In this document: piece by piece, positions 14,424 to 41,799 of the stretch
Position numbering within the stretch: the stretch's first letter is position 1
How the letters are laid out: each line of letters starts with the position of its first letter
DNA from: Candidatus Woesebacteria bacterium
Lineage (GTDB): Bacteria > Patescibacteriota > Microgenomatia > UBA8517
Assembly (NCBI GenBank): GCA_030699485.1
Contig: JAUYMM010000026.1
Coordinates: 1 to 47,547 of the forward strand
Direction of reading: 5' to 3'
DNA length: 47,547 nucleotides
Notes under the pieces: generated by a model
Told to the model about the DNA's origin: nothing
The model's database searches: none
What the model saw: the letters and a program-made list of their open reading frames with translations, nothing else
Made by a program: the position numbers and the translations under genes

Positions 14424-14505
14424 TTTATTAAAAGAAAGATTGGAGAAACCCTGAAGTAAAATTAATAATTACAACTAGTCTCTCACATATCGGCTAGCCG
14501 ATATT

Positions 14506-14757
14506 TCATATCGATATTGAGATTATAACTTCCTTTTGTCCTTTTGTCAATTTTTTAATTTTAGCCTCTCTTTTTAATGCCTCGCTTCTTGTTTGATAAT
14601 TTTTAGTATGGACTAATTTAAAGCTATCAAAGACCTTCATGTATTTAGCAGATCTTTTTCCTTTCTCACGGTGTTCTTTTAATCGTTTTTCCAAATTATT
14701 GCTAATCCCCGTATATAAAGTGTTTTTGGAAGTTCGTAATATATAAACTGTATACAT
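14506..14757 (-). CDS. GIY-YIG nuclease superfamily small protein
   Basis: YTVYILRT...LYTGISNNLEKRLKEH motif, 83 aa. Confidence 0.8.
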   Translation of the reverse strand: MYTVYILRTSKNTLYTGISNNLEKRLKEHREKGKRSAKYMKVFDSFKLVHTKNYQTRSEALKREAKIKKLTKGQKEVIISISI

Positions 14758-15725
14758 TATTTAAGTAGTTTTAATGCTTCTTCTATAGATTTTGTTTCCA
14801 TAAGTTTAGATCTTAATTTATTTGCTCCGTTAAAGTTATTAATATACATTTTAAAGAATTTTTTCACAGTTTCATAACTGGTTACTTTATCGTTTGAATA
14901 TCCACTATCACATAATTTTAGATGTTTAATTAATATTTTTTTTGATTCTTCAAACGAATGTTCTTTGACTTTTTTTTCAAATACCCAAGGGTTTGAAAAT
15001 ATTCCTCGACCTATCATTATTCCATCAACATGAGACTCCTTAACCCTTTTTAGAGCCTCTTTATAGCTTTTTACGTCTCCATTGCCTATGATAATTGTAC
15101 TAGGTGAAATATCATCCTTAATCTTTACAGCTTTTTCAATTTCTTTCCAGTTTGCAGGTATATCTGACATTTGTTTAGAAGTTCTACCATGAACAGTTAA
15201 TGCATCTATTTTTTGTTCGAGTAAAAAAGTAATCCATTCTTCTGTTACTACTTCTTTGAATCCAATTCTAGTTTTCACACTAATGGGTAACTTTTTTGAT
15301 CCTTTTTTTGTAGCTTCAATTATTTCTTTTGCAAGTGGATGATTGTTAATTAAAGCAGAGCAAGCTCCAATTTTAACAACTGCACGATCAGGGCAACCCA
15401 TATTAATATCAATTCCATCAAAACCAAGTTTTTCAATTAGTTTTGCAGTTTTATAATAATTTTCAGGTTTTAGTCCCCAAATTTGAGCTACAATTGGTTT
15501 TTGTTCTTTACTAAATTTAAATCTAGGTATAGTTTTTTCCAAACCCAATGAATTTAGGGCTTCTACATTTGTAAATTCAGTGAACAATACATCAGGTTTT
15601 GGTAAATAGTTTGCAACAATTTCTCTAAAAATATAATCAGTCACCCCTTCCATTGGAGCAAGAACAGTAAATGGCCTTGGTAGTTTTCGCCAAAAATTGG
15701 TGGTATTAATTGTTTTAATACTCAT
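14757..15725 (-). CDS. dus: tRNA-dihydrouridine synthase
   Basis: LAPMEGVTD and DINMGCP (catalytic Cys), TIM-barrel Dus pattern. Confidence 0.85.
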   Translation of the reverse strand: MSIKTINTTNFWRKLPRPFTVLAPMEGVTDYIFREIVANYLPKPDVLFTEFTNVEALNSLGLEKTIPRFKFSKEQKPIVAQIWGLKPENYYKTAKLIEKLGFDGIDINMGCPDRAVVKIGACSALINNHPLAKEIIEATKKGSKKLPISVKTRIGFKEVVTEEWITFLLEQKIDALTVHGRTSKQMSDIPANWKEIEKAVKIKDDISPSTIIIGNGDVKSYKEALKRVKESHVDGIMIGRGIFSNPWVFEKKVKEHSFEESKKILIKHLKLCDSGYSNDKVTSYETVKKFFKMYINNFNGANKLRSKLMETKSIEEALKLLK

Positions 15726-15921
15726 TTAAAAGTTTTTCATCTATAGCGTTTTTTATTTTTTTTATGGCTACACAACCTTCACACATTGATCTCACTAAAT
15801 CGTCGAACCCTCTTTCTTCTCTTCCAGTAATTATCGTTGCACGATTTATATCTGCTTGAAAGCTATCGCGATTCTGCAATGCTTTAAAAATTATACAATC
15901 TTTTTCACAGCTTCTTTCCAT
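15715..15921 (-). CDS. hypothetical small Cys4 protein
   Basis: 68 aa with Cx3C (C5, C9) and CxxC (C46, C49). Sits between pyrB and dus on the same strand. Confidence 0.45.
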   Translation of the reverse strand: MERSCEKDCIIFKALQNRDSFQADINRATIITGREERGFDDLVRSMCEGCVAIKKIKNAIDEKLLNEY

Positions 15922-16009
15922 ATTATAAAAACAATCTCCTCGTTGCCGTCAACAGTGAATACATCAGTATAGATCTTGCGTACCATTTCTTATATTGTAA
16001 ATTATTATT

Positions 16010-17053
16010 TTAGGTTGGTAGTTTACCTAATACTCCTGCCAATAATGTCATTCTTACATATAGGCCATTCTTCATTTGCCTGAAATAGGCCGCATTTTTA
16101 GTATAAGTATCAACTTCTTTGGAAATCTCACCAACCCTAGGAAGTGGATGCATTATTGTCAGGGAGTCTTTTCCGGCATGTAGAGTTTCCGGCGTAACAA
16201 TATAAAGACTTTTTACAGATTCATAAAGAATAGGATCACTAAATCTTTCTTTTTGCACACGTGTAACATAAAGCACGTCTGTTTCTCCTAATACTTCAGA
16301 TAAATTTTTGTGTTCCGATTGTTGCACACCCTTAACTGCTAGTTCTTGAATAATTTCAGGTGGCATTCTCAAAATTTCGGGTGAAACATAATTAAGCTTA
16401 ACGTCATAAAGAGAAAGAAGCCTTGCCAAAGAATGAACTGTTCTTCCATGTTTCATATCACCCAACATGGTCACAGTAAGTCCATCTACCTTTCCTTGTT
16501 CTTTTCTGACTGTTACATAGTCTAGTAGTGCTTGGGTTGGATGCTCCCCAATACCATCGCCAGCATTTATTAACGGTATAGAAGTTGCCTCTGCGGCTAT
16601 TGCAGCTGAACCTGTTTCGGGGTGACGTAGGACAATAACATCCGCATATTGTTCGAGTGTGCGAACTGTGTCCTGTAAATCTTCACCTTTTGTAACAGAT
16701 GAGTATTCAACTCCATTTATAGGAATTACGCTTCCAGCCAATCTTTCCATTGCAGCTGTAAATGAAGATGAAGTTCGTGTTGATGGTTCGTAGAAAAGAT
16801 TTGCTAATATTTTTCTACTTAAAAAATCAGTTTTATAGCCTTTACTTGCAATCTCAGCCATTTCTAAACTCCAATCAAAAATATTATCAAGGGTTTTTGT
16901 ATCAAATTGCTGAATGGAAAGTATATCCTTACCCTTAAGGTTTCCGTTCAAGTGTTCTGCGGAATGATTAAGAGTATCTGTACCTCTTTGGTTTGCGCTT
17001 AAATCTACATTCATCCTCTGCAATAGAATATTCTCAATAAGTCTCCATGTCAA
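16010..17053 (-). CDS. pyrB: aspartate carbamoyltransferase catalytic chain
   Basis: FYEPSTRTSSSF, HPTQALLD, RVQKERF and HPLPR motifs. The track start is TTG at 17053; ATG at 17014 is an alternative. Confidence 0.85.
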   Translation of the reverse strand: MTWRLIENILLQRMNVDLSANQRGTDTLNHSAEHLNGNLKGKDILSIQQFDTKTLDNIFDWSLEMAEIASKGYKTDFLSRKILANLFYEPSTRTSSSFTAAMERLAGSVIPINGVEYSSVTKGEDLQDTVRTLEQYADVIVLRHPETGSAAIAAEATSIPLINAGDGIGEHPTQALLDYVTVRKEQGKVDGLTVTMLGDMKHGRTVHSLARLLSLYDVKLNYVSPEILRMPPEIIQELAVKGVQQSEHKNLSEVLGETDVLYVTRVQKERFSDPILYESVKSLYIVTPETLHAGKDSLTIMHPLPRVGEISKEVDTYTKNAAYFRQMKNGLYVRMTLLAGVLGKLPT

Positions 17054-17095
17054 TATCAGCTTTTATCTCTTTTGTTAACTTTTCTATGTGTTAAG

Positions 17096-17122
17096 CGGTA
17101 ACTGGGGTGTTTTGCTTGGCTG
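17096..17122 (+). repeat. 27-bp direct repeat, distal copy (att-like)
   Basis: CGGTAACTGGGGTGTTTTGCTTGGCTG. 26/27 identical to 28005..28031. Confidence 0.9.
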
Positions 17123-17268
17123 AGCATCTCGGTCTGCCCCCATTCTATCATTATAACTCGTGTCCCACCTCAAGGCTAAATGAGACAAATGGGACACTAT
17201 AAAAAGGAATTATCTCAAAAACTACTGATATATTTTGTTATGGTGTTATTTAGTGATAAACTTGGGCC

Positions 17269-18348
17269 ATGGCAAAAATAGAAACGGAAGTTTGGCCAAT
17301 AGAAACAAAAAAGTATATAGAACACGCCTTAAATTTCAATTCGGAAGAAATGCGCCTACGTGAATTAGCAATATCTGAAGTTCCAGATGGTGCGATAGAT
17401 ATGCATACTCATATGGGACTGGCTTCATATTCAGCTGGTATGGATCCAGTATTTCTATCTCGTTTGGTATCAATTTACCCATATTTTTCATATGAAGATC
17501 ATTTGAAGGTGCGGTCAGCTCTTTGGGATAATCGGAAAGATGTTAGACAGGTTGTTTTTACCTTTCCACTTAGAGGAATAGATTTCAGAGCAGGTAATCA
17601 ATATATTGAAAAGATATGTGCAAAGGACGAAGCACTCATTCCATTTTTGACTGGTGATCCTTACGACAATAGGTACACATTGTCACAATTAGATAACCCG
17701 AATTGGAAAGGACTAAAGATGTATTCCAAATTAATGTGGGAGGAAGTTCATAGAATAGTCGACTTTTTTCCTTGGCCAGTTCTTGAGAAAACCAATGATT
17801 TAGGATTGCCGATAACACTTCACTTGCCTCACAATTTGATGTGGGATATTGATGAGCTTGTAGACCTAGCAAGAAGATATGAGAATATGACTTTTCTTAT
17901 TGCTCATTTTGGTATTGCTCGAGGAAATAGAGAGGAAATAAATCGAGCAATAGCAATGACAGAAGATTCCCCCAATATTGTATATGAGACTTCTTTTTAT
18001 GTGCTACCTGAAGTTATATCTGAAGCTTTGCGTAGAGTAGGCCCGCAAAGAATAGTATATGGATCGGATAGACCATTAGACCTAGTAAGAGCTAAGTTTG
18101 TTTTCGGCCAGAATGGTGAGGAGAGACTTATAACAGATTACCCCTACCATTGGGTAAACAAAAAGGAACAAGATAGTCTTCGTACAAAAATTGTCGTCGA
18201 CCCAAGCGAAATTCCTAATATCTATTTCACCTCGTTATTTGCTTTGTTAGACGCTATCAAAGAAGTTTATCCTTCTTTTCAAGAACAACTTAGTGTTAAG
18301 CAAACTATTTTTGTAGATAATCCCAGTAGAATTTTAAAATTACTTTGA
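17269..18348 (+). CDS. metal-dependent TIM-barrel amidohydrolase-2 family protein
   Basis: IDMHTHMG (HxH), LHLPH, AHFG and YGSDRP motifs. Confidence 0.7.
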   Translation: MAKIETEVWPIETKKYIEHALNFNSEEMRLRELAISEVPDGAIDMHTHMGLASYSAGMDPVFLSRLVSIYPYFSYEDHLKVRSALWDNRKDVRQVVFTFPLRGIDFRAGNQYIEKICAKDEALIPFLTGDPYDNRYTLSQLDNPNWKGLKMYSKLMWEEVHRIVDFFPWPVLEKTNDLGLPITLHLPHNLMWDIDELVDLARRYENMTFLIAHFGIARGNREEINRAIAMTEDSPNIVYETSFYVLPEVISEALRRVGPQRIVYGSDRPLDLVRAKFVFGQNGEERLITDYPYHWVNKKEQDSLRTKIVVDPSEIPNIYFTSLFALLDAIKEVYPSFQEQLSVKQTIFVDNPSRILKLL

Positions 18349-18552
18349 AATTTCTAAAACCTGAGCTGATAACATGGAACTGACGCAAACCAGAAAACAT
18401 AAATTCTAATAGCCGGTACGTTGGGGACTCTGTAGCTACAATATTTTACCCAATTCATATCATAGATCATAATAGTAGTGTTACCCGTAAATTTAATTAA
18501 GATTTTAGAGCTTGATGTTGTAGACTTTAAATTCTAAACTATAGCTAGAAAA

Positions 18553-19500
18553 ATGAAATTGACGGTTGATAAAATCCTAAAAAACTCGGATATAAGGAAA
18601 CTAGGTTATATAAAAATCTGCAAACCCTTAGACCTAGGACTCGAGAGCCGAAACTTCCTATTAATTACTCCCTCTAACAAATACGTACTTAAATCTTATA
18701 AAAATACTTTATTAAATGAAGTCATTTTTGAAACCTCAATCCTTAGCCATTTAAAACGTTTCAACAATAAGTTCCCTTCGCCCATCAGAAAGGTTTTTTA
18801 TATTAACTCTTTACCGTGTGTTCTCTACACATTCATTGAGGGGCGTGGCCTCGTGCCACATGATATTAATATCTCTACGTTACAAAAGGTAGCAGAGTTA
18901 CAGGCATTAATACATAAAAACTTAGTCAATTTCATACCAGATGGTAACAGGGAAAGATTCTCAATATTTGATCTAAGTTTTGTAGACGACTTTAGATGCG
19001 ATTGCTCGAGAGAGGATACATTGCTCATTAAAAATTGTAGAGATTGGCTAGTAACAAGACTGAATAGATTTAAAAGAAGTAATTTCCCCAAATCAATAAT
19101 ACATGAAGATTTGGAGATGGAGAACATTCTTGTCGATAGAAAGGGAGATGTCAAATTTATTGATTTTGGTGAATCGCATAGGGCTGAAGTGGTAAGTGAT
19201 ATAGCAATTACTATAAAGGAGTTAATTGTAAACAATTATGGAACTAACACCAACAATCTTATTGGAGCATATTTAGACGCATATGAGGTAAATAATCCGG
19301 TTCTGAATGTAGTGCAGCTTAAAGTGTTATATACTTTATTTGTTAGAAGAGGCTTGTTTATGTTTTCATATTTTCTAAATAAGCAAGCTAAAAATAAAGA
19401 TCTATTTTTGAGCAGAAGAATCAAAATAGAAAGGAAGACACTCAAATTATTGTTGTTACCTAACGATTTAGAACAAAAAATAATTAGTTTTAAATTATGA
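18553..19500 (+). CDS. APH/choline-kinase-family small-molecule kinase
   Basis: Brenner motif IIHEDLEMENILV and KFIDFGES. Confidence 0.75.
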   Translation: MKLTVDKILKNSDIRKLGYIKICKPLDLGLESRNFLLITPSNKYVLKSYKNTLLNEVIFETSILSHLKRFNNKFPSPIRKVFYINSLPCVLYTFIEGRGLVPHDINISTLQKVAELQALIHKNLVNFIPDGNRERFSIFDLSFVDDFRCDCSREDTLLIKNCRDWLVTRLNRFKRSNFPKSIIHEDLEMENILVDRKGDVKFIDFGESHRAEVVSDIAITIKELIVNNYGTNTNNLIGAYLDAYEVNNPVLNVVQLKVLYTLFVRRGLFMFSYFLNKQAKNKDLFLSRRIKIERKTLKLLLLPNDLEQKIISFKL

Positions 19501-20510
19501 CTAGACTTAAAAAGAACGCAAAAGTTGGCCTAACACTAATGAAAATTGCCCCCTTTCATATCGGGCATAAGTATTTGCTAGACACCGCCCTACACGAAGT
19601 TGATCACTTAATTGCTGTTATTTATGATTGTCCAAATTTAACAGATATTCCCCTAAATGTTAGAGCAGGTTGGATCAGAAAACTTTATCCTCAAGTTGAA
19701 GTGATTGAGGGTTGGGATGCTCCAAATCAACATGAAGATACTTCTGAAGTGAAAAGAATGCAGGAACAGTATATAGCTGGTGTGTTAAAAGGTAGGAAAA
19801 TTACTCATTTTGTTTCATCCGAATATTATGGGGAACACATGAGCAAGTTTTTAAATGCAATTAATTTTATTATTGATATGGACAGGAAAAAACTGCAAAT
19901 ATCTTCAACAATGATTAGAAGTAATCTTTATAAATATAGAAAGTTTATCCCAACAATCGTCTTGAAAGATCTTTTAACAAAAGTGGTTATCCTAGGTGCT
20001 CCTAGCAATGAAAATGAAAAGATTGTTAAAGAAGTTTCTCGTAGACTTGAAACAAACTGTTTTCCAGATATATCTGTAAAACACCTTTCTCAGAATAACT
20101 CTATTAAACCTAGTCGAGAGCTAGACTTTATAGACATAGCACAAAAAAGAAATATCCAAAGATCTAATGAGAAAATTATCCACGATGCTAATGAGTCAAT
20201 AATTTATAGCTCCTCAATTCTTATGGATTATATATTATCAATGACTGTGAACAGAAAATACGATCAAAAATTACACGATCTTGCAAGAGAAGAAATATCA
20301 AACTATGATTTAGTATTTGTAAATTCAGATAAAACAAATATTATCAGTAAAAATTATGGAATTGAAAACACTTACATAAATAATCAGCTTTTTGGAAATT
20401 TGGTTGAAATGAAGATTCCTTATACATTATTAAAAGGTAATTTCGAACAAAAGGTGCAAACAATCGTTAATAAAGTTAAAATAGACATCAAATCTAAGAA
20501 AAAAATCTAA
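19497..20510 (+). CDS. NadR-like nucleotidyltransferase (HxGH cytidylyl/adenylyltransferase fold) with degenerate C-terminal P-loop domain
   Basis: PFHIGHKYLL and ISSTMIR motifs. C-terminal VVILGAPSNENEK lacks the GK[ST] of a Walker A. ATGA overlap with the kinase gene. Confidence 0.65.
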   Translation: MTRLKKNAKVGLTLMKIAPFHIGHKYLLDTALHEVDHLIAVIYDCPNLTDIPLNVRAGWIRKLYPQVEVIEGWDAPNQHEDTSEVKRMQEQYIAGVLKGRKITHFVSSEYYGEHMSKFLNAINFIIDMDRKKLQISSTMIRSNLYKYRKFIPTIVLKDLLTKVVILGAPSNENEKIVKEVSRRLETNCFPDISVKHLSQNNSIKPSRELDFIDIAQKRNIQRSNEKIIHDANESIIYSSSILMDYILSMTVNRKYDQKLHDLAREEISNYDLVFVNSDKTNIISKNYGIENTYINNQLFGNLVEMKIPYTLLKGNFEQKVQTIVNKVKIDIKSKKKI

Positions 20511-20512
20511 AA

Positions 20513-21703
20513 ATGAATTATTTAAGTGGTGGGGTAAACTCACCCATACCTATTCCTAAAAATTTCCCAAATAATATTATTGCTGGGGAGGGTCCTTACG
20601 TAATAGACAAAAATGGTCAAAAATACATAGATATGTGGATGGGTTATGGTGCTCTTTTGTTTGGACACGCAGATAAGGAAATTATTCAAACGACTAGTAA
20701 GTGTTTAAAAAATGGCTGGTTCTTTTCATATCAAACTAAAATAGAGAAAGATTTTTCATCTGTTTTACACGATCTGATCCCTTGTGCGGAGAGAGTGCGT
20801 TTTGCTACCACAGGATCTGATGCTGTGGCTTATGCAATACGTGCAGCACGAGCTTACACTTCTAGGGATATGGTCTTATCTGTCGTTGGTGGATACCACG
20901 GAGTCCATGAAGCAATGATAGCAAGTGAAGGTATAGCTTTTAAAAATAAACCAGATTTAGTTCATTTTAATAACACCAAAGAATCAATAAAAGCCATAAA
21001 AACCAAAAAATATGCATGTATGATATTGGAGCCAATAATGGCAAATTCGGGTTGTACTCCACCATTACCAGGTTATCTACAGGCACTGCGAAAAGCATGT
21101 GATGAAACTAATACTGTTTTAATTTTTGATGAAGTGGTAACAGGATTTAGAATTAATCTAGGTGGTGCTCAGAAGAAATATGGTGTAACACCCGATTTAT
21201 CAACGTTTTCTAAAGCTATTGCGTGTGGATTACCCTTATCTGTCGTGTGCGGAAAGGTATCGATCTTGGATAAATTTATTCCTACGGGTAATGTTTTTTT
21301 TGCTGGAACTTTTAATGCCCACCCCCTTTCTTTGGCAGTTGGTACTCTCGTAATTGAAATGCTTAGGGATGGTAAAATACACTCTCGGATCACTAAATTG
21401 GGAAATCGGTTGAGATCTTTTATTTCAAATTCTATTAATAAGTATGATCTTAATGCTTGTGTTCAGGGTACTGATTCAATGTTAACAGTAGCTTTTGGTT
21501 GTAAAGATTTTGTTCATGGTATCAGTAATGAAAAGTTCAATCAAAAAACTTATGATATATTTGTTAAGAAAATGGCTGAGAGGAAAATATTGTTTCCTCC
21601 ACTACCAACAGAAACTGTTTTTCTATCCCCAGTACATGAAGCGGTGATTGAAAAAATAGAAAAAGCATTTGATGAAGTTTTTTTGGAAATAAAAAATTTG
21701 TGA
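20513..21703 (+). CDS. class III PLP aminotransferase, glutamate-1-semialdehyde aminomutase (HemL)-like
   Basis: GGVNSP start, DEVVTGFR, and PLP-Lys context TFSKAIACG. Confidence 0.75.
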   Translation: MNYLSGGVNSPIPIPKNFPNNIIAGEGPYVIDKNGQKYIDMWMGYGALLFGHADKEIIQTTSKCLKNGWFFSYQTKIEKDFSSVLHDLIPCAERVRFATTGSDAVAYAIRAARAYTSRDMVLSVVGGYHGVHEAMIASEGIAFKNKPDLVHFNNTKESIKAIKTKKYACMILEPIMANSGCTPPLPGYLQALRKACDETNTVLIFDEVVTGFRINLGGAQKKYGVTPDLSTFSKAIACGLPLSVVCGKVSILDKFIPTGNVFFAGTFNAHPLSLAVGTLVIEMLRDGKIHSRITKLGNRLRSFISNSINKYDLNACVQGTDSMLTVAFGCKDFVHGISNEKFNQKTYDIFVKKMAERKILFPPLPTETVFLSPVHEAVIEKIEKAFDEVFLEIKNL

Positions 21704-21712
21704 TAAATATCT

Positions 21713-22936
21713 ATGGATAATCAAAAACTAAAAATATTGAAAGATCTTAATAAAACAATAGAGCTTGCTAAAGGTACAAAACTCTATAAGAATAAAAAAC
21801 TCCATAAATTAAATTCACTAACTGAACTGTCAAAATTACCATTTACCTCAAAAGAAGATTTAAGGGATTCTTATCCATACGGAGGACTTGCTGTTCCACA
21901 AAGTGAAATTATAGAAGCTCATACGACATCTGGCACAACAGGTAAACCTACTCTTTCTTTTTTTACGAAAAAAGATCTCGCAGAAGGGTCCAAAGCTATT
22001 TCTGAAGCTTGGAGAACTTTTGGAATTAATAAAAAAAGCAAAGTAATGTTTATCATGAGTTATGGTTTATATAGTGGAGCGGCGTTGAATACTTATGCTA
22101 TCCAGAGTATAGGAGCATTTGTTTTACCATCTGGTATACAACCTGTTTTGACTCAATTAAACTTCATGGTTGATTTTGAAATTGATACCATAATAGCTAC
22201 CCCAGGTTATTTACTCTACCTCTATCAATGGATGAAAACAAATAAATTCGACCGCTCAAAACTTAAGTTAATAAGAGCAATTGCTGCTGGAGAAGTTTAT
22301 TCAAATGATATTCGAGAGGATATAGAAAATAAACTTCAAATAAAAGTTTTCGATCATTATGGTTTGTGTGAAGTAAATACAGGAATAGCATATGAGTGTA
22401 CAGAAAGAAAGGGGTTACATGTAATAGATGACTATGTTATTCCGGAAGTTGTTGATCCAAAAACCAATAAGGTTTTACCTGTTGGGGAATATGGTGAACT
22501 AGTCTTCACGAGTTTAAGAAAAGATGCATCACCAATAATTCGATACAGAACAAAAGACATTACCTGTATCATGCCTGGGAAATGCCCTTGTGGAAGAAGT
22601 AGAATAAGAATTGGTCGGATCAAATCAAGAATTGGTGAAACATTATTTATCAAAGGTTTAAAAATTGACCCATATGAATTAAGAGATTTTGTAAGAAAAT
22701 ACTTAGGCTCAAAGCTTTTTGCGGGTGATATTCAAATTATTATCAAAGAAAACGATATTAAATTCATACCAAAAATTCTAATGACTTTTGTTAAAAATGA
22801 TCCAAAAGTTTTGAGGAATCTCCAGCTAAAAATTTATGAGTTTACAAAGGTGAAATTTCAGGTTAAAAATGTTCCGCAAGAATTCTTTAACAGAGAAAAA
22901 AATAATAAAGTTAAATTTATCGTTCATGAAAAATAG
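21713..22936 (+). CDS. adenylate-forming enzyme, PaaK / CapK / F390-synthetase / LuxE-like
   Basis: HTTSGTTGKPT AMP-binding motif, ~400 aa short ANL architecture. Confidence 0.75.
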   Translation: MDNQKLKILKDLNKTIELAKGTKLYKNKKLHKLNSLTELSKLPFTSKEDLRDSYPYGGLAVPQSEIIEAHTTSGTTGKPTLSFFTKKDLAEGSKAISEAWRTFGINKKSKVMFIMSYGLYSGAALNTYAIQSIGAFVLPSGIQPVLTQLNFMVDFEIDTIIATPGYLLYLYQWMKTNKFDRSKLKLIRAIAAGEVYSNDIREDIENKLQIKVFDHYGLCEVNTGIAYECTERKGLHVIDDYVIPEVVDPKTNKVLPVGEYGELVFTSLRKDASPIIRYRTKDITCIMPGKCPCGRSRIRIGRIKSRIGETLFIKGLKIDPYELRDFVRKYLGSKLFAGDIQIIIKENDIKFIPKILMTFVKNDPKVLRNLQLKIYEFTKVKFQVKNVPQEFFNREKNNKVKFIVHEK

Positions 22937-24113
22937 ACAAAACGAAATATCAAGTTTGTGCAAAGATTTGCTTAATTGGATTAAGAAGAATAAAAATGCT
23001 TTATTACTCTTGAATAGTAAATGTTCTCAAGATACTGAATTTAGTATGAGTAATGATTTTGATTTTGTCTGTTCTGTACTAGAGTCATTTTATAAAAATA
23101 ATCTTCATTTATTTAATCAAAGACTTAAACCTAAGGGAAAGGTGATAATAATTCTTTCTTACAACGAACCTATGACTATGTCCATAATTCCAGTTTTAAA
23201 CGCTTTAGTTGCAGGTAACAAACTTACAGTAAGGCCCAGTTCTCGCGGTCGAGATATATTTAATTATATTTGGCGCGAAAGTGGAATAATTGATAAATAC
23301 AAACTTGATTTAAAAATTCGGGAACAAGATAGTTTATCAGACGCAGAGCTTAAAAATACTCAAGCTTTATATTTTTTTGGAGGATATAAAAATGCAAAAA
23401 AGATGTCTATTTTGTGTTCGAAGTATTTTATAGAGTTTTATCCACAAATTGAAGCTGCAGATTTCAAGATTATCAAATATGATCATTCTGAAAATTTTGA
23501 TATAAAACAAGATGTTGAAACAACTTTGAACGAAGCGTTTTCCCATAACGGTCAATCTTGCCAAAGAGTTCAAGGAGTTTTTGTTGCAGAAAGAGACTAT
23601 AAAAAATATTCAGATAACATGTTAACTAGTTTTAATAAATTTTGCCATTCCTCAGAAATAAAAAATTATATATCAGAAAATTTAGATGTTGATAAGAAGA
23701 TTATTAAATCTACAATTCTTGAAATTTCAAAATCAAAACCTATGAAAATAATAAAAGCCCCTACTAAATTAGGATTGCCAATATTAGTCCTTGATCCCAA
23801 TCCTGCAAGTATTTTTGTTCAGTCAGCGTACTTTTTACCAGTTATATGGATAGCAAAGTATTCGTCTGAGAAGGAACTTCTTGAATATATCGGATTACGT
23901 CAATTTCATCTAGGAATAAATATTCAGTCAGACAATGAAGATTTCATTTCTAGAATTATCTCAAACACCAATTATACGAGATATACTGTTAATACTGATC
24001 ATTCAAGAGTTAGACCAGAAGAGGGGTGGGGAGGAACATGGCCAAGTGGCTACACTGGTTATAGAAGTTGGATTGAACTTTTTTCTTATCCCTACGAAAT
24101 TATTAGGAAGTGA
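22926..24113 (+). CDS. aldehyde dehydrogenase superfamily protein, LuxC-type acyl-CoA/acyl-adenylate reductase-like
   Basis: Catalytic Cys context HNGQSCQRVQGVFV. Start taken at ATG 22926 (MKNRQNE), an 11-nt overlap with the upstream gene; the track start is 22869. Confidence 0.6.
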   Translation: MKNRQNEISSLCKDLLNWIKKNKNALLLLNSKCSQDTEFSMSNDFDFVCSVLESFYKNNLHLFNQRLKPKGKVIIILSYNEPMTMSIIPVLNALVAGNKLTVRPSSRGRDIFNYIWRESGIIDKYKLDLKIREQDSLSDAELKNTQALYFFGGYKNAKKMSILCSKYFIEFYPQIEAADFKIIKYDHSENFDIKQDVETTLNEAFSHNGQSCQRVQGVFVAERDYKKYSDNMLTSFNKFCHSSEIKNYISENLDVDKKIIKSTILEISKSKPMKIIKAPTKLGLPILVLDPNPASIFVQSAYFLPVIWIAKYSSEKELLEYIGLRQFHLGINIQSDNEDFISRIISNTNYTRYTVNTDHSRVRPEEGWGGTWPSGYTGYRSWIELFSYPYEIIRK

Positions 24114-24135
24114 TTTCACTAATCTGAACGCTTTA

Positions 24136-25416
24136 TTATTTCCCAGAAGTAATTTTTAACATATTAAGTGATCTTTTTCCTAATCTAATGATAAAATGAC
24201 TGTTTTTATCTAACTTAACATTCTCTGTTTTTGGATCAATTGCTACACCGTTAATATAAAAGCCGTCTTGTTCGATTAACTTTTTTACACTAGTTTTACT
24301 TTTGGCTAGATTTGTTTCAACGAGTAGACCAATTAAGGTTTTAATGCTTATATCACCAGGTTCTAACTGGCGACTTAGTATTGACTTAGGAGCTTCCATT
24401 TTTTGAACTGTTTTTTGGAAGAATTTAGCAGCTTGATCGGCTGCATCTTCACCATCATATAGTTTAACAATCTCATGAGCCAGCACTTTTTTAAGTTCGA
24501 TTGCATCAGCAGTTCCTTCGTGCAGTTCTTTTGTGGCTTTTTTTACAAATTCCATTGGAAAACGAGTAGCACACTCCATATATACAGGAATCAACGAATC
24601 GGAAATTTTCATCAATTGAACATATTTTATTTCAGGCTTATCGTTAATCCAGATACAATTACCTTTGCTTGTACTCATTTTGTCTCCGTCTAAACCAATC
24701 AATAGTAGTGTGGTCATATAATCCTGTGGAGGCATTCCGAATGCTTTTTGTACATCCCTTCCTTTTGTAAGATTGTATGTTTGATCGGTTCCTCCCAACT
24801 CAACATCTGCCTTAATCTTGACAGAATCATATGCCTGAAGTAGAGGATAAAAGGCCTCAGTAAAAGATACACTATCTCCACGTTTTATTCTTTTAGCAAA
24901 ATTGTCTCTTCCGGAGGCCTCTTGTAGGGTTTGGCATGAAGTAAGTTTTAATAGAGTCTGTAGAGATATATTTTTTAGCCAATCAGCATTATGAACAAGT
25001 TCTAGTTTGGAAGTATCAAGAATTCTCGAGAACTGATTCATGTAATCTTTGATATTTTCAGCTATCTGTTGGGGAGTTAATCCTTTTCTTGCTCCAGGTT
25101 TATCTGAAGTGTCTCCTACTTGAGCTGTACCATCTCCGATAATTATAACTATTTGATGACCTAGATCTTGAAATTCCTTTAATTTTAAAAGAGTGGCTCC
25201 TCTGCCAACATGAAGCCTCGAGCCTGTTGGATCAATCCCAAGTTTAACTCTTAAAACAGTGTCTGGATCAAGTAGTCTTTCTCGTAAATGTTGACTATCA
25301 GCCACTTCAACCACACCCCTTGTCAAGAGCTCGTCTACTCTTTGTTCCAGTTCTTTACCTCTACTTATTTCACCCATACCTTCTTTATTATATGATATTA
25401 ATGTTTCTTCGTTCAT
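24136..25416 (-). CDS. tyrS: tyrosine--tRNA ligase with C-terminal S4-like domain
   Basis: GIDPTGSRLHVGRG (HIGH variant), IIIGDGTAQVGD, KMSTSKG. Confidence 0.9.
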   Translation of the reverse strand: MNEETLISYNKEGMGEISRGKELEQRVDELLTRGVVEVADSQHLRERLLDPDTVLRVKLGIDPTGSRLHVGRGATLLKLKEFQDLGHQIVIIIGDGTAQVGDTSDKPGARKGLTPQQIAENIKDYMNQFSRILDTSKLELVHNADWLKNISLQTLLKLTSCQTLQEASGRDNFAKRIKRGDSVSFTEAFYPLLQAYDSVKIKADVELGGTDQTYNLTKGRDVQKAFGMPPQDYMTTLLLIGLDGDKMSTSKGNCIWINDKPEIKYVQLMKISDSLIPVYMECATRFPMEFVKKATKELHEGTADAIELKKVLAHEIVKLYDGEDAADQAAKFFQKTVQKMEAPKSILSRQLEPGDISIKTLIGLLVETNLAKSKTSVKKLIEQDGFYINGVAIDPKTENVKLDKNSHFIIRLGKRSLNMLKITSGK

Positions 25417-25520
25417 ACAACTGACATTTTTGAGTATTTATACTTCCATTAATTGTCTTATGGGTATTTTAACAAAAATTATTACTATATGCTACAATCG
25501 ATTCGTTCACATCAAATAAT

Positions 25521-26831
25521 ATGAAAGAAAATGGTCACCCAACTTTATCTGAAAGGGCCTTACTTTTTCCTGATAATCCGATCAGAGGATTAGAAGAACT
25601 TGCTATTCAGACAAGAGCAAAGGGTGTAGAAGTAATACCATTAAACATTGGATCTCCTGATACAACAACTCCAGAAGTGGTCTTATCAGCAATTAAACAG
25701 TTTGTAGATAAAAGTGTAAATATTGGTTATGGGCCTTCCTCTGGGGATTCTGAATTAATTAAGAAAAGATCTTTTTTTTATAAAGATCGATTGAATATAG
25801 ATATTAGTCCTAAAAATATCTTGATTACTCAAGGAGCAAGTGAAGCTTTAGAGTTGGCTATTTTCTCAGTGGCTAATCCCGGTGACGAAATAATAGTGAT
25901 TGAGCCTTTTTTTCCGAACTATAAAGCAATTGCTGAGAAATTTAATGTTGGGTTACGTGGTGTTACCACAAGAATAGAAGATGGTTTCCATGTTATTAAA
26001 GCTGGAGAATCACGAGAAGAATCACTAAAAAGAATCGATGAAGCTGTTAATTCGAGAACTAAGGCTATCCTTTGGAGTTCTCCAAGTAACCCGACAGGAG
26101 CTGTTTATGGAAAAAGTGAATTGGAACTATTGTATACAATTGCCAATAAACATAATTTATTTTTGATAGCCGATGAAGTTTATCGTCTTCTTATATTTAA
26201 TGAAGGAGTTAAATCAAACGGCGTTGTAAGATCACCATCAATTTTTGATATTGTTCCTCAATCAGATAGAGCAAGGGTAATAGGTATCGACAGTTCTTCT
26301 AAGGAGATATCTTTTTGTGGTGGTAGGATAGGTTATCTTATTGTAGATGAATCGTTATCTCCAACAATATTGAAAAATGCCTCAATAAGGGCATGCCCAG
26401 CTATTTTATCACAAGAAGCTGTGAAAGAAATAGTTAATGTAACCCCTGATTATTTTTCTGGCAACCAGGAAGAATTAAAGAAAAGACGCGATTTTCTACA
26501 TCAAGAATTATCTAATATGAAAAATCTGGGAGTGTCAGTATCTTCAAATCCACCGGAAGGCGCCTTTTATATAATTGTTGATTTGGGAAAACAAATATCG
26601 GCTGAAAAATTCTGTAAGTGGCTTTTGACTGATTTCACCGAAGAAAATGGTAGCAATGAAACAGTTTTACTTACACCAATGAGGATGAACACAGGAGGAT
26701 TTTATTTAGACAAAAATACGGGTACTAGCCAAATAAGAATAGCATACGTAAGAAAAATGGATGAGCTAGTTAAAGGAATAGACATTCTCAAATTGGCTTT
26801 AGAAATATATTTAAAAAAAGAAGTTTCTTAA
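25521..26831 (+). CDS. class I/II PLP aminotransferase (aspartate/aromatic type)
   Basis: SPSNPTGAV and SSSKEISFCGGRIGY (PLP Lys and Arg). Confidence 0.8.
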   Translation: MKENGHPTLSERALLFPDNPIRGLEELAIQTRAKGVEVIPLNIGSPDTTTPEVVLSAIKQFVDKSVNIGYGPSSGDSELIKKRSFFYKDRLNIDISPKNILITQGASEALELAIFSVANPGDEIIVIEPFFPNYKAIAEKFNVGLRGVTTRIEDGFHVIKAGESREESLKRIDEAVNSRTKAILWSSPSNPTGAVYGKSELELLYTIANKHNLFLIADEVYRLLIFNEGVKSNGVVRSPSIFDIVPQSDRARVIGIDSSSKEISFCGGRIGYLIVDESLSPTILKNASIRACPAILSQEAVKEIVNVTPDYFSGNQEELKKRRDFLHQELSNMKNLGVSVSSNPPEGAFYIIVDLGKQISAEKFCKWLLTDFTEENGSNETVLLTPMRMNTGGFYLDKNTGTSQIRIAYVRKMDELVKGIDILKLALEIYLKKEVS

Positions 26832-27000
26832 ATTACTAATAGGGGGAGTAGGTTTTATCTTTCATGCTTTTGGTAGATATAATACATCATTTATTATATG
26901 TTTCACACAATCGTCTTACTCATAAGACCAATCCCATTTAGGTTCGTCAACTTCTTCTATCTTAAAAACTAGCATCCCGACCATGGTAAAAAGAATTGCT

Positions 27001-27525
27001 TTAATCATGGGTAAATTCACTAAATCTTTCAGTTAGTCTTTCATAAATTTCTTCCTTACCAATTATTGGTTTAGATGATTCAAGAAAATATTTGAATTTG
27101 TCTATTAGATGTTTGTGCAACTCATTTTCTGTTAGATGATAGAAATAGCTGTTATCAATAAAGTCAGCGGCTTTGATAACAACAGCATCTTTTCCAAAAT
27201 TTATCGCTTTATCAACCTCTTCTTTATCTCTTTCATCTCTGTTTATAATCGAGGCATCAAAGGTTAATATTTGTACAATATCTGCAATTTTTTGTCTTTC
27301 TATTTCATCAATACCTAATACTACCAACACTGCATTAACAGTACCACTGCCTTCTGTGTCAAGCAGGGGGTAAGTGTGTGCCCCAGTTGGTTCAGTTGAG
27401 TCTTGTACTTTATGCAAACATCCTCTTAACTGACCAGTTACACAGTCAATTGCCTTAATACCAAATTTTACTTTTAAGGTGTTTTGGTCTTTGAGTGTTC
27501 CATAAAATGAAAAACTTTCTTTCAT
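27001..27525 (-). CDS. hypothetical protein with N-terminal GGCT/AIG2-like (gamma-glutamylcyclotransferase fold) region
   Basis: FYGTLK...YPLLDTEGSGTVNAVLVVL resembles the YGTL / YP / V-x-G pattern of the family. C-terminal half unknown. Confidence 0.45.
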   Translation of the reverse strand: MKESFSFYGTLKDQNTLKVKFGIKAIDCVTGQLRGCLHKVQDSTEPTGAHTYPLLDTEGSGTVNAVLVVLGIDEIERQKIADIVQILTFDASIINRDERDKEEVDKAINFGKDAVVIKAADFIDNSYFYHLTENELHKHLIDKFKYFLESSKPIIGKEEIYERLTERFSEFTHD

Positions 27526-27897
27526 AATTAATGTTAATTGTTAATATTATAAGATATTGAACGAATTTTGGCAAATTCCTACACAAGCCAAAGAACAAGG
27601 AAAAATCTACAGGTAGTTACTGAAAAAGGAACGAGAAGGTTCTGGACCAGATCTAAATGATAGGAAATTAAGGTGATCAATGTACCCGCTTTTGTTTCCC
27701 ATTAAATGACTTATTCGTCAACAGAAAAATTGAATTTCCGTTATTTCTTCAAAACAGTACGATTACATAATTAAGAGTACATTAGCGTATTACAGGATGA
27801 TTTGGTCCGAATCCCATGTTGGGGATAGAAAAGGGATTCTAACGCCGACCTGGGTATCCAGCGACCATTTTATCTTAAATTTATCCCTATAACTTGC

Positions 27898-27917
27898 AAA
27901 AAAGGCCTGTTTCAGGC
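27898..27917 (-). terminator. intrinsic terminator about 110 nt downstream of tRNA-Gln
   Basis: Minus strand reads GCCTG-AAA-CAGGC-C-TTTTTT. Confidence 0.45.
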
Positions 27918-28004
27918 ATTTCTCCGGACTATGAGTGTGTGGTACGAGAGTCTGACTATAAAAATAGCGGTTTTGGAGGTGTTATTGGGCTATTCTAGGC
28001 ACCA

Positions 28005-28031
28005 CGGTAACTGGGGTGCTTTGCTTGGCTG
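28005..28031 (+). repeat. 27-bp direct repeat, tRNA-proximal copy (att-like)
   Basis: CGGTAACTGGGGTGCTTTGCTTGGCTG. The last 6 nt are the complement of tRNA-Gln positions 71-76 (CAGCCA). Confidence 0.9.
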
Positions 28032-28099
28032 GGGGACAGGGATTTGCACCCCAATAGGCAGATCCAGAATCTGCAGTCCTACTGTTAGACGATCCCCCA
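28026..28099 (-). tRNA. tRNA-Gln (anticodon CUG), CCA encoded
   Basis: Hand fold: acceptor TGGGGGA/TCCCCCA, D arm GTCT-AACAGTA-GGAC, anticodon arm GCAGA-TTCTGGA-TCTGC, variable loop CTAT, T arm TGGGG-TGCAAAT-CCCTG, then G73 and CCA. U1-A72 and G73 are typical of bacterial tRNA-Gln. Confidence 0.75.
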
Positions 28100-28115
28100 A
28101 GATAATATGCGTATT

Positions 28116-28454
28116 TTACACTAATTTGGGTAAGAAGAGAAAAAATCCAACAACAACTGATGCAATAGCACTAAGAAGAACTACTGCTGATGAAATGTCT
28201 TTAATAACTCTGGCTTCTTCTGAAATTTCCTTTGAGTTCATATCTACTAATTTTTCAACCATTGTATTTACTAATTCTGAAACAATTACAAAAAAAATTG
28301 TTAAAATTAAAATTGATAATTCTACTTTTGTAAATTTTAAATAAATTGCTAAAAATATGGCAATTATTGAAGCTAAAAAATGAAATCTTAAGTTTGGTTC
28401 AGATTTTAAAGCATCGTGAATTCCATTAAAAGCAAACTTAAAACTTTTTTGCAT
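28116..28454 (-). CDS. dgkA: diacylglycerol/undecaprenol kinase (DgkA family)
   Basis: 112 aa, 3 TM helices, SELVNTMVE motif. Confidence 0.85.
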   Translation of the reverse strand: MQKSFKFAFNGIHDALKSEPNLRFHFLASIIAIFLAIYLKFTKVELSILILTIFFVIVSELVNTMVEKLVDMNSKEISEEARVIKDISSAVVLLSAIASVVVGFFLFLPKLV

Positions 28455-28481
28455 ACTTTAATTAGTATATCATTAAATAAG

Positions 28482-28934
28482 ATGATTACATTTTTGGCAA
28501 GTATTTTAATATGGCTAATGTTTTTTGGTTTAATTGTTCTTTGGATAATTGATGGAAAAATTAAAAAAGAAACAGTAATCCACGCTATCTTTTCTTGTTT
28601 TTTGGCTTGGGTGGTAACAGAAGCAATTAAAGCTTTTTTCCCAACATTAAGACCATTTCAAGTTCAGGATTTAGTACCATTAACACTAACGATTCCTGGA
28701 GATGGTGCATTTCCTTCAACTCATACCGCAATTGCTTTTGCGTTATCGATAACAATATTTAAACATGACAAAAAAATTGGAGTTTTATATCTTGTAATGG
28801 CAGGGCTTGTAGGTATTGCAAGAATCATAGCCCATGTCCATTATCCTATTGATATTATGGCTGGAGCAGTCATTGGAGTTGTTATTTCAGGCTTGACATC
28901 TAGCAAACACTTTGTTAGACTGCTAAATCGATGA
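28482..28934 (+). CDS. PAP2-family phosphatase (undecaprenyl-diphosphatase-like)
   Basis: KAFFPTLRP, PSTHT and HYPIDIMAG motifs. Start moved to ATG 28482 to avoid overlap with the divergent dgkA. Confidence 0.8.
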   Translation: MITFLASILIWLMFFGLIVLWIIDGKIKKETVIHAIFSCFLAWVVTEAIKAFFPTLRPFQVQDLVPLTLTIPGDGAFPSTHTAIAFALSITIFKHDKKIGVLYLVMAGLVGIARIIAHVHYPIDIMAGAVIGVVISGLTSSKHFVRLLNR

Positions 28935-31291
28935 GAACAGTACCAATAATACCAATTAGAGGCTCAGTAGTTTTTCCCCATACGGATACCTTGTTGTCCT
29001 TTGCACGTTCAAAATCTGTCACTGCGGCAGATGAAGCTTTTACCAAAGATAGGTTGGTTGCAATTTTCACTCAAAAAGATTCAAGAATTGGAGATCCTGA
29101 AAAAGAAGACCTTTTTGAAATAGGAACTATTGCAACAATTACTCAAATGATGTCTGTTGAAGATGGTGTTCATGCTTTAGTTAGGGGTCAGGCAAGAGTT
29201 AGACTTTCAGAAATAGTTTCAAGAGCTCCTTTTTTGGTTGGGACTGTTGAAGAACTACCTGATATTGTAGATGAATCATCAGAAGTAATTGCATTATCAA
29301 GAAATTTAGCAGAAACATTTAAAAAGGCACTTATGTTAGGTAAGACTGTTGAAATAATTTCTGTTGTTAAATTAATTTCTGAGACTTCAAATCCGTCAGA
29401 ATTAACTGATCAAATTGCTACAGTTTTAGATATTAAACCAATTGAAAAACAAGAAATACTTTCTACTTTTCCATTAATTTCAAGAATGAAAAAAGTTCAC
29501 GAACTTCTTTCAAAGGAAATAACTATTTTAGAAATTGAAAAAACCATATCATCAAAAACTCAAGAACAGTTTGATGAAATTATGAAGAAAAATATTCTTC
29601 GTGAGAGGAAAAAGGCAATTAACAAAGAATTAGGAGAAGCTGATGAAAAAGAGGGAGAAGTAGGTTCTGAAGAAGTAAAAGAATACAAGAAAAAAATAGC
29701 TGATGCCAAAATGCCTAAAGAAGTGGAAGAAAAAGCTTTAAAAGAACTTAATAAATTATCAAAGATGAGCTCTTTTAATCCTGAATCAGGTTTTTTAAGA
29801 AATTATTTAGATTGGCTCTGTGAAGTTCCTTGGAGTGTTGTCAGTCCTAATAATGTATCTATTAAAAAAGCAGGCAAGGTAATGGAAAAAAGGCATTATG
29901 GATTAGATAAGACAAAGACGAGAATACTGGAATATCTTTCTGTTATGAAACTTTTGGAAGAAAGAAAAAAGAAAGGCAAGGATAGTAATTTTCAACCAAC
30001 AATATTATGTTTTATTGGTCCTCCTGGAGTTGGGAAAACTTCAATTGGAAGAGCAATAGCTGAAGCAATGGGAAGAAAATTTGCGAGAATATCTTTAGGT
30101 GGTATACGAGATGAGGCAGAAATAAGGGGTCACAGAAGAACATATGTAGGAGCACTTCCTGGAAGAATTATTCAAGGAATTAAAACTGCGGGAACCCGAA
30201 ATCCTATATTTATGTTGGATGAAATTGATAAAGTTGGAGCAGATTTTAGAGGTGATCCAAGCTCAGCTCTTCTTGAAGCTCTTGACCCTGAACAAAATAA
30301 AGAATTTTCAGACCACTACCTAGAAGTAAACTTTGATTTATCTGATGTCTTTTTTATAGCAACAGGTAATGTACTAGACACTATTCCATCTGCACTTAAA
30401 GATAGAATGGAAGTAATACAATTTGCAGGTTATACAGAAGAAGAAAAATTTGAGATTGCAAATAGATTTATTTGGCCAAAACAACTTAAAAATCATGGGC
30501 TTGAAGACTCTAAAATTAAAGTTACTGATAAAGCCTTAAAGTTAATTATTTCTCGTTACACAAGAGAGTCGGGCGTAAGAAATTTAGAAAGAAATTTAGC
30601 TACAGTGTTAAGAAAGATTGCAAGACTTGTTGCAGAAAAAAAGAAATATCCGCGAATAATTAAAGAAAAACAAATAAGACAATACTTAGGATCCAATAAG
30701 TTTTCATCTTTAATTGCCGAGAAGAAAAATGAAATTGGAATGTCAACAGGACTTGCCGTAACCTCAGTGGGTGGAGAGATTTTATTTATTGAAATTTCTT
30801 TAATGCCAGGAAAAGGCAGACTTACATTAACGGGGCAATTAGGAGATGTTATGAAAGAATCAGCACAGGCTGCATTTACTTGGACAAGATCAAATTATAA
30901 ACTTTTAGGATTAAAACCAGATTTTTCTGCAAAATTAGATGTCCATATACATGTTCCTGAAGGAGCAGTACCTAAAGATGGACCATCCGCTGGAACTGCA
31001 ATAACAACAGCACTTGTATCTGCACTTACAAAAACTCCCGTTAAAAGAGAGGTTGGAATGACTGGAGAAATTACACTTCGCGGTAATGTTATGGAAATTG
31101 GAGGAGTTAAAGAAAAAACAATTGCAGGTCATAGAGCAGGATTAAAAACAATAGTTCTGCCTAAAGAAAATCAAAAAGATATGGAAGATGTGCCAGAAAA
31201 AGTTAAAAAAGATATTAATTTTGTCTTTGCAGAAAAAATTGAAGATGCTTTAAAAGTTGCCCTCACCAAATGGCCAATTGTGGTAAAATAA
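28931..31291 (+). CDS. lon: ATP-dependent Lon protease
   Basis: N-terminal LON domain, GPPGVGKTS Walker A, PKDGPSAG catalytic Ser. Confidence 0.95.
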   Translation: MRTVPIIPIRGSVVFPHTDTLLSFARSKSVTAADEAFTKDRLVAIFTQKDSRIGDPEKEDLFEIGTIATITQMMSVEDGVHALVRGQARVRLSEIVSRAPFLVGTVEELPDIVDESSEVIALSRNLAETFKKALMLGKTVEIISVVKLISETSNPSELTDQIATVLDIKPIEKQEILSTFPLISRMKKVHELLSKEITILEIEKTISSKTQEQFDEIMKKNILRERKKAINKELGEADEKEGEVGSEEVKEYKKKIADAKMPKEVEEKALKELNKLSKMSSFNPESGFLRNYLDWLCEVPWSVVSPNNVSIKKAGKVMEKRHYGLDKTKTRILEYLSVMKLLEERKKKGKDSNFQPTILCFIGPPGVGKTSIGRAIAEAMGRKFARISLGGIRDEAEIRGHRRTYVGALPGRIIQGIKTAGTRNPIFMLDEIDKVGADFRGDPSSALLEALDPEQNKEFSDHYLEVNFDLSDVFFIATGNVLDTIPSALKDRMEVIQFAGYTEEEKFEIANRFIWPKQLKNHGLEDSKIKVTDKALKLIISRYTRESGVRNLERNLATVLRKIARLVAEKKKYPRIIKEKQIRQYLGSNKFSSLIAEKKNEIGMSTGLAVTSVGGEILFIEISLMPGKGRLTLTGQLGDVMKESAQAAFTWTRSNYKLLGLKPDFSAKLDVHIHVPEGAVPKDGPSAGTAITTALVSALTKTPVKREVGMTGEITLRGNVMEIGGVKEKTIAGHRAGLKTIVLPKENQKDMEDVPEKVKKDINFVFAEKIEDALKVALTKWPIVVK

Positions 31292-31298
31292 CCTCATT

Positions 31299-31372
31299 GA
31301 CCCCATCGTCTAGTGGTCTAGGACACTTGGTTCTCATCCAAGAGATCGTGAGTCCGAATCTCACTGGGGTCA
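31299..31372 (+). tRNA. tRNA-Glu (anticodon CUC), CCA not encoded
   Basis: Hand fold: acceptor GACCCCA/TGGGGTC, D region TCGTCTAGTGGTCTAGGAC, anticodon arm CTTGG-TTCTCAT-CCAAG, T arm GTGAG-TCCGAAT-CTCAC, discriminator A. Confidence 0.85.
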
Positions 31373-31419
31373 CAAAATCAAAATAGAATAAAAAGTCCTA
31401 CTTTACGACTAAATTGCAG

Positions 31420-41795: not shown

Positions 41796-41799
41796 AATT

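Follow-up and report, generated by a model that had tools for sequence, protein, structure and literature searches.

Islands and prophages of the tyrosine-integrase type that target tRNA genes carry a direct, co-oriented repeat over the tRNA 3' end and variable content downstream of it, and the same features are seen at a locus of a Candidatus Woesebacteria bacterium (Patescibacteriota; Microgenomatia; UBA8517). The 47,547 nucleotides (nt) of contig JAUYMM010000026.1 (NCBI GenBank assembly GCA_030699485.1), here called the window, contain two copies of a 27-mer, CGGTAACTGGGGTG[T/C]TTTGCTTGGCTG, which lie on the plus strand at 17096-17122 and 28005-28031 with 26/27 identity, the second being fused to the 3' end of a tRNA-Gln gene. 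A sequence-only reading had taken the pair as att-like scars of an integrated island without an integrase. Comparison with related genomes and metagenomes on balance favors another account, in which the 27-mer, designated O, probably heads a family of non-coding modules conserved in the Woesebacteria/Microgenomates, rather than being the scar of a foreign island. The earlier idea survives in so far as the locus is a hot spot, the two copies appear to have exchanged sequence recently, and their topology is att-like; the island, the matching empty site and the foreign cargo do not survive. Read on the minus strand, the window presents a tRNA-Gln-O-QX unit and, 10.9 kb downstream, a P-O unit without the QX body, with features as follows (related loci are given by L numbers):

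28026..28099, minus strand: tRNA-Gln(CUG) with encoded CCA (ARAGORN; Rfam tRNA 46.9 bits), 94% identical to the tRNA-Gln of L004.
28005..28031, minus strand: proximal 27-mer O, comprising the terminal CAGCCA of the tRNA (6 nt) and the first 21 nt of a conserved trailer.
27788..28004, minus strand: QX, a non-coding element that continues from O (75-86% identity to other copies; nhmmer E 1e-90; no Rfam match).
27905..27917, minus strand: terminator-like hairpin GCCTGAAACAGGC and T-run inside QX, ~115 nt after the tRNA, with one compensatory change in a 4-sequence alignment.
17117..17208, minus strand: P, a conserved non-coding module of ~90 nt defined by alignment, ending ...GCTCAGCCA and immediately 5' of the distal O in the minus sense.
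17096..17122, minus strand: distal 27-mer O, after P and without a QX body.

The formal likeness to tRNA-targeting islands extends to attL, attR and attP arrangements that can be found across genomes, and to tandem junction copies downstream of one tRNA. Unlike such islands, however, the repeat holds only 6 nt of the tRNA, an integrase is found in no locus, the cargo is resident and includes tyrS, the empty site of a relative lies off the repeat boundaries, and the arms P and QX are conserved and multi-copy. Integron cassette arrays (attI/attC) share with these loci a series of short unrelated open reading frames (ORFs), including a toxin-antitoxin pair, each followed by a module of ~45-90 nt in one orientation from a fixed anchor, but here there is no IntI-type integrase, no attC-like hairpin in P and no GTTRRRY core. 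Elements that exploit the Xer system utilize a dif-like 28-bp site of two ~11-bp arms and a 6-bp spacer, whereas by inspection the dyad symmetry of O amounts only to GTGCAC, and the window copy is without even that. Small RNAs (sRNAs) derived from tRNA 3' external transcribed spacers are known, e.g. 3'ETS-leuZ of E. coli, and QX is similar in that it begins where the tRNA ends, has a single-stranded character and shows a terminator-like hairpin in some copies; it differs in being much longer and in occurring also behind the non-tRNA module P. Finally, dispersed repeats such as repetitive extragenic palindromes and the mosaic elements built of them (REP/BIME) or miniature inverted-repeat transposable elements (MITEs) are, like P, multi-copy per locus, intergenic and often placed just after stop codons; unlike these, P is conserved across Microgenomates families and not within one species, has no palindromic fold, and is concentrated downstream of tRNA-Gln, whereas other loci totalling ~1.5 Mb hold ~10 copies.

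Within the window the repeat has just two matches; beyond it, the order tRNA-Gln or P, then O, then QX constitutes a recurrent module family in ~20 other loci. O is conserved after tRNA-Gln in at least 12 other loci and is always preceded by ...CAGCCA, contributed either by the 3' end of tRNA-Gln (CUG or UUG isoacceptors) or by P. It normally continues into QX: when metagenomes were scanned with a degenerate version of O, 17 loci were returned, and in 15/17 QX is present, its length being either ~245 nt (long form) or ~110 nt (short form). In 12 metagenome loci QX stands behind tRNA-Gln-CCA. The trailer is conserved over ~245 nt at 75-86% identity in L008, L010 and L081, genomes in which Lon is only 67% identical to that of the window. 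The modules are all in the tRNA orientation and lie between tRNA-Gln and a backbone of Dus, GIY-YIG and helicase genes. Within the 2-4 kb examined downstream of tRNA-Gln-O-QX in L008, L010 and L081 there is no second repeat, and no conserved gene is found downstream of QX, the neighboring ORFs being unrelated. A separate observation concerns L081 (4400-4592, the same region as L108), which has tandem tRNA-Gln(CUG) genes 49 nt apart; the upstream one is without CCA, and the downstream one, with a shortened D-arm and CCA, is the one followed by O-QX.

The flank beyond the distal repeat, previously described as weakly resembling a tRNA T-arm, proves to be the conserved P module of many related genomes, whose end in the minus sense reads ...GGTCTAGACC...GCTCAGCC(A). 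By nhmmer 33 copies of P are present in the loci examined, often several per locus, and in every array with tRNA-Gln in view they lie on the same strand as the tRNA and downstream of it. The 3' half of P alone recurs a few nt after the stop codons of unrelated small ORFs, and the 5' half (to 17174) travels in L130 with a block of genes described below. RNAalifold on 29 P copies gave 0 pairs, i.e. no attC-like hairpin or covariation. P-O-QX is contiguous in L117, L105, L120 and L107, inside chromosomal-looking arrays, and no circular or episomal context was seen for them; P-O without a recognizable QX is found in the window, L109 and L111, and P followed by neither O nor QX is also seen. In L109 the P-O junction comes directly after a MntA/HepT toxin-antitoxin pair behind a tRNA-Gln without CCA and O. 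As in the window, a tRNA-O-QX unit and a P-type junction occur in one array, 1.7-12 kb apart, in L120, L107 and L111, and the intervening 12 kb of L111 encode arginyl-tRNA synthetase, a radical-SAM enzyme, an LD-carboxypeptidase and methyltransferases, with no integrase. Essentially no cassettes are shared between arrays of different genomes beyond the backbone genes, and the tRNA-Gln interval behaves like a small defense/accessory island. Genes observed in individual arrays include an AEP-TOTE primase-helicase fusion (L008 1003-3195), a bAvd diversity-generating retroelement accessory protein (L010 721-1209), the MntA/HepT pair (L109 3424-4045) and a phage GP30.3/NADAR-like protein (L120 5980-6510).

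Within the window the repeats are as first described. A search of the 47.5-kb sequence allowing up to 3 mismatches gives exactly two matches in the same orientation where 0 are expected, and a chance match of two 27-mers is ruled out because 100 shuffles give none; the second copy is indeed the last 6 nt of tRNA-Gln(CUG) plus 3' sequence according to ARAGORN and Rfam; and the 10,882 bp between the copies hold nine ORFs and no recombinase domain by Pfam and jackhmmer. When the two sites are aligned, likeness stops sharply at each end of the 27-mer, identity falling from 96% to background just outside O. Neither longer homology between the sites nor a distal pseudo-tRNA that had been deleted fits, as 27 nt alone align. 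Among 19 copies of O most of the variation falls at seven positions, and the window copies agree at 7/7 of these and share states found in no other genome (AGCAAA; ...CAGTTACCG). Their single difference is at a position where the distal O deviates from the G of all other 27-mers compared, except the divergent P-side copy of L111. The window copies are mutual nearest neighbors, with 1/27 difference vs at least 4 to the copy of any other genome; within-genome pairs elsewhere show 7 differences (L120) and 8 (L111). The 1 vs at least 4 differences and the private substitutions together indicate that the window copies exchanged sequence recently, and point to an exchange that would have been limited to O in this lineage. 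The layout, which is formally attL...attR with contiguous P-O-QX elsewhere, fits a reciprocal crossover at O; the simplest event would be such a crossover between a tRNA-Gln-O site and a P-O-QX site, and it could have been the work of host recombination, or of a recombinase supplied in trans, while the hot spot was rebuilt.

The DNA between the copies is a mosaic of resident genes, i.e. an eight-gene block with tyrS and one orphan ORF:

17269..26831, plus strand except for tyrS on the minus strand: eight-gene block (Pfam and NCBIfam), order kept in L122, L124 and L130, encoding an amidohydrolase_2 protein; an APH-type kinase; a NadR-like nicotinamide mononucleotide adenylyltransferase/kinase; a class-III aminotransferase; a PaaK-like ligase; an aldehyde-dehydrogenase-like protein; a true tyrosyl-tRNA synthetase (TyrRS, tyrS, minus strand); and a class I/II aminotransferase.
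27001..27525, minus strand: 174-residue ORF, hyp174, between QX and the block, with no Pfam/NCBIfam match.

In L122, L124 and L130 the block of 17269-26831 is found in the same order at 78-90% nt identity, next to xseAB in L122/L123, between M20 and S9 peptidases in L124, and between a membrane protein and a seryl-tRNA synthetase homolog in L130, so that four related genomes present it in four different neighborhoods; no tRNA-Gln, O or QX is beside it in these three. The limits of block homology are not the repeats but the last aminotransferase stop codon (26831) and, in L130, position 17174. hyp174 is not beside the block in L122, L124 or L130 and is not homologous to the ORFs after QX in L010 and L111; hyp174 and the trailer element are not part of the conserved block. 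TyrRS homologs show graded identities (88, 87, 87, 84, 81 ... 64, 56, then ~50%) parallel to the Lon series, and since the two fall in step, vertical descent is indicated. Tetranucleotide composition within the segment is ordinary (z-scores -1.0 to +0.6), with the pyrB/amidohydrolase stretch alone mildly deviant. The proposal of foreign cargo is thus not supported on either count: composition inside the segment is not atypical, and L122, L124 and L130 share the block order without the repeats while TyrRS points to vertical descent. Apart from this, the block amidohydrolase has only 9 homologs at E<=1e-60 among 5.8 billion proteins.

Loci anchored on Lon assign the window to a Woesebacteria genome (Microgenomates, Patescibacteria). 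Among relatives, Lon identity to the window is highest for L004 (96%; ~86% at the nt level and collinear), followed by L005, L006 and L007 at 81-84%, with many others near 65%. The gene order of L004 is helicase, GIY-YIG, Dus, tRNA-Gln, DAGK, PAP2, Lon, with the Dus start codon 6 nt past tRNA-Gln; its tRNA-Gln has no CCA and no trailer, and the 27-mer is not found in L004. Alignment with L004 defines one further interval:

15708..28027, no strand: 12.3-kb segment without an L004 counterpart (blastn: L004 6559-9075 = window 13200-15707; L004 9076-12356 = window 28028-31287), made up of pyrB and small ORFs together with both repeats and the nine genes between them.

The empty site expected by the sequence-only reading, tRNA-Gln directly next to pyrB, was not seen; the L004 empty site joins Dus to tRNA-Gln, the indel takes pyrB and the distal repeat with it, and pyrB never adjoins tRNA-Gln among the relatives examined. 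A short Dus N-terminus is common to L004, L005 and L006, and because of this the Dus junction of the window is taken as the derived state. The interval from Dus to tRNA-Gln, put at 14 nt for L004 in this comparison, grows to 1.3 kb (L006), 2.5 kb (L005) and 12.3 kb (window), and L005 and L006 hold other DNA there (YceG; plus an HD protein in L005). As judged from these alignments, the DNA 3' of tRNA-Gln is an insertion or replacement relative to L004, and CCA plus trailer are not the native 3' flank of this tRNA in close relatives. The combination of CCA, O and QX is patchy among relatives of similar distance, being present in L113 and not in L004-L007.

The tRNA-Gln flank is a hypervariable interval or hot spot, the content of which differs in every lineage examined. 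In other Woesebacteria the tRNA-Gln 3' flank holds large serine recombinases, toxin-antitoxin genes and defense-like genes. The large serine recombinase genes abut or lie near the 3' side of tRNA-Gln in L007 (854-2377) and L013 (7565-8104) and lie within 1.5 kb of it in L025 (4224-5600); the O-QX trailer is not present at these three loci. The serine recombinases beside tRNA-Gln are independent evidence for an integration hot spot. In most of the genomes examined the variable interval is bounded at its far end by a GIY-YIG gene, which usually has a DEAD-box helicase with it; in the window this is a stand-alone gene for an 83-residue nuclease (14506-14757), with homologs in L004-L006, L081, L109 and L111.

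QX is strand-asymmetric in composition. On the tRNA strand the window copy has 33% C and 16% G in a genome of 32% GC, and the C-rich, G-poor bias is found in 15/17 copies (C 27-37%, G 13-19%). It contains ACACCTCC, and an anti-Shine-Dalgarno-like ACACCUCC is present. That QX is protein coding, on either strand, was rejected by inspection, since substitutions are not three-periodic and an antisense ORF is not conserved. A phage origin was rejected as well: the O pattern has 21 matches in IMG/VR, none with QX, and nhmmer gave one weak partial match (E 1.6). Rfam covariance models left QX, P and contiguous P-O-QX unmatched, with tRNAs alone reaching threshold, in searches that covered the window, 27450-28120 at E up to 10, and L117, L105, L109, L106 and L112 at E up to 1. 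Literature searches on integrons and integrative elements of the candidate phyla radiation (CPR) and on the "TOTE conflict system" found nothing relevant, and as far as Rfam and literature searches show, the P, O and QX modules are undescribed. QX would most likely act as a transcribed 3'-trailer RNA of tRNA-Gln. Alternatively, O-QX may be transcribed as the trailer RNA of tRNA-Gln, P serving as a further point of entry, and the distal O would then be the relic head of a second copy.

Next to the distal repeat lies pyrB, with its predicted promoter:

16010..17014, minus strand: pyrB, aspartate carbamoyltransferase (TIGR00670 345.7 bits vs a cut-off of 237), standing alone with no pyrC, pyrD or pyrF nearby.
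17025..17053, minus strand: predicted sigma-70-like promoter of pyrB, TTGACA-17-TATTCT, between the distal O and pyrB and common to the pyrB genes of relatives.

The start of pyrB is most likely the ATG at 17014 and not the TTG at 17053, and with this start the distal repeat is 81 nt upstream of the gene, not 43 nt as first given. Homology with the pyrB upstream region of L128/L129 starts at 17065, and for this reason P-O is not a native pyrB leader; this candidate is also rejected because the pyrB genes of relatives are without P-O. Those genes stand in pyr operons or other contexts with no P, O or 27-mer upstream, e.g. the pyrB-pyrF-x-pyrC(-pyrD) operons of the Woesebacteria L125-L127. The window enzyme is 66-70% identical to Chloroflexi/Anaerolineae enzymes and looks like a possible inter-phylum acquisition; de novo pyrimidine genes are unusual in Patescibacteria.

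Several results weigh against O as the head of a module family with exchange at O and a trailer RNA in QX. The copy counts of O, P and QX for this metagenome-assembled genome cover one contig; under strict scanning only 3/17 copies (window, L117, L111) show the terminator-like hairpin; and the consensus fold of QX is essentially none (-1.2 kcal/mol), as is that of P. No recombinase was found in the window by Pfam on all ORFs of 13.2-34.3 kb, and no tyrosine or serine recombinase in any O/P/QX locus by jackhmmer over up to ~14 kb each, with XerD and the L007 serine recombinase as seeds; the Pfam scan of 88 array ORFs, given as its top 25 families, leaves room for one. A tRNA-Gln-O site without QX, the attB form, was not found. 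The last points also bear on a realistic though unlikely alternative, that the 10.9 kb are a discrete integrase-less element mobilized in trans with a 27-bp core, tRNA-Gln-O-QX being attL, the P-O-pyrB flank attR and P-O-QX attP. All three formal att configurations do occur across genomes, the identity block in the window ends sharply, CCA+O+QX replaces the native tRNA flank patchily (L113 yes, L004-L007 no), the eight-gene block occupies four neighborhoods in four related genomes, and tRNA-Gln has a large serine recombinase at or near it in both L007 and L013, and one no more than 1.5 kb away in L025. However, neither the attB form nor a recombinase is found, the block ends at 17174 and 26831 do not match the repeats, relatives have the block without O or QX (L122 and L130 also without hyp174), a vertically inherited tyrS is inside the segment, the L004 empty site also removes pyrB and the distal repeat, and partial P copies after the stop codons of unrelated small ORFs are unlike a unique att arm. 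The same block order without repeats in relatives, the vertical inheritance and ordinary composition of the cargo, and empty-site boundaries that differ from the repeats largely refute a classic horizontally acquired island at tRNA-Gln that later lost its integrase; direct repeats with one at the tRNA 3' end, and the absence of the region from the closest relative, are what such an island would share with the locus, and this explanation is now very improbable.

Another account dispenses with recombination: O would be a functional RNA signal, for instance one for processing or one that forms the 5' head of an sRNA from the tRNA-Gln 3' trailer, placed once behind the tRNA and once behind P, with its likeness kept by one lineage-specific factor, or by gene conversion before the second QX was truncated. 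This is rather unlikely. It would explain why QX is strand-asymmetric, unstructured and highly conserved and carries the anti-Shine-Dalgarno-like motif, with a terminator ~115 nt after the tRNA in some copies, why L120 and L107 hold tRNA-driven and P-driven copies, and the distal mismatch at an otherwise invariant position (except for the L111 P-side copy), as expected of a relic; but the within-genome pairs elsewhere are unlike (7-8 differences), so that co-evolution is not general, and 27 nt amid unrelated sequence are too short for ordinary gene conversion. That the contig is instead misjoined at P and inside the tRNA, so that the 10.9 kb do not truly lie between the repeats, is hardly credible. 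The immediate context of each repeat is independently confirmed by the Logan assembly of SRR13727534, which at 100% identity reproduces pyrB-O-P (L003 = window 15822-17202) and P-block-QX-O-half tRNA (L001 = window 17178-28057); the window P is a normal full-length family member, and a 27-mer with a mismatch is shorter than typical assembly k-mers. On the other side, that assembly breaks inside P (17178-17202) and inside the tRNA (28057), contigs L002 and L122 from other samples likewise end inside P, and only the deposited contig supplies the two joins by which the 10.9 kb come to lie between the repeats. A bolder extension of the module-family reading, unlikely but conceivable, is an integrase-less cassette-shuffling system anchored at tRNA-Gln in Woesebacteria/Microgenomates, in which P-O-QX would be recombination modules, P would mimic the tRNA 3' end, and the driver would be a recombinase elsewhere or the GIY-YIG/helicase pair.

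Two other repeats of the window were noted. A 59-nt direct repeat (58/59) at 41733-41791 and 42603-42661 duplicates the secA 3' end (SEC-C motif) 870 nt downstream, with an alpha/beta-hydrolase ORF (within 41644-42549) between the copies, and in L004 and L007 one single segment matches both; it looks as if DNA had been inserted at the 3' end of secA and had duplicated its target, which makes a cleaner footprint than that of the 27-mer pair. A perfect 26-nt repeat with a palindrome (AAATTGCAGGGTCAGACCCTGCAATG) is at 31411-31436 and 38960-38985, one copy being 38 nt after tRNA-Glu. The tRNA-Glu strand in L004, L005 and L007 is opposite to that of the window, and collinearity of the window with L004 breaks at 31287-32261.

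Direct repeats at a tRNA are insufficient to define an island without an empty site and a cargo phylogeny; here the island call would have made a resident operon and an essential tRNA synthetase part of a "mobile element". What emerges instead is uncatalogued: in ultra-small CPR bacteria a hypervariable interval next to tRNA-Gln is marked by a pair of non-coding modules, both strongly conserved. Should QX prove to be a trailer-derived RNA, it would be a candidate regulatory RNA in a phylum with almost none known. Should O, P and QX prove to be recombination sites, they would account for the reshuffling of accessory genes in these tiny genomes without local integrases; and if cassette shuffling is true, toxin-antitoxin and defense genes, and even core blocks such as that of tyrS, would move through one hypervariable interval.

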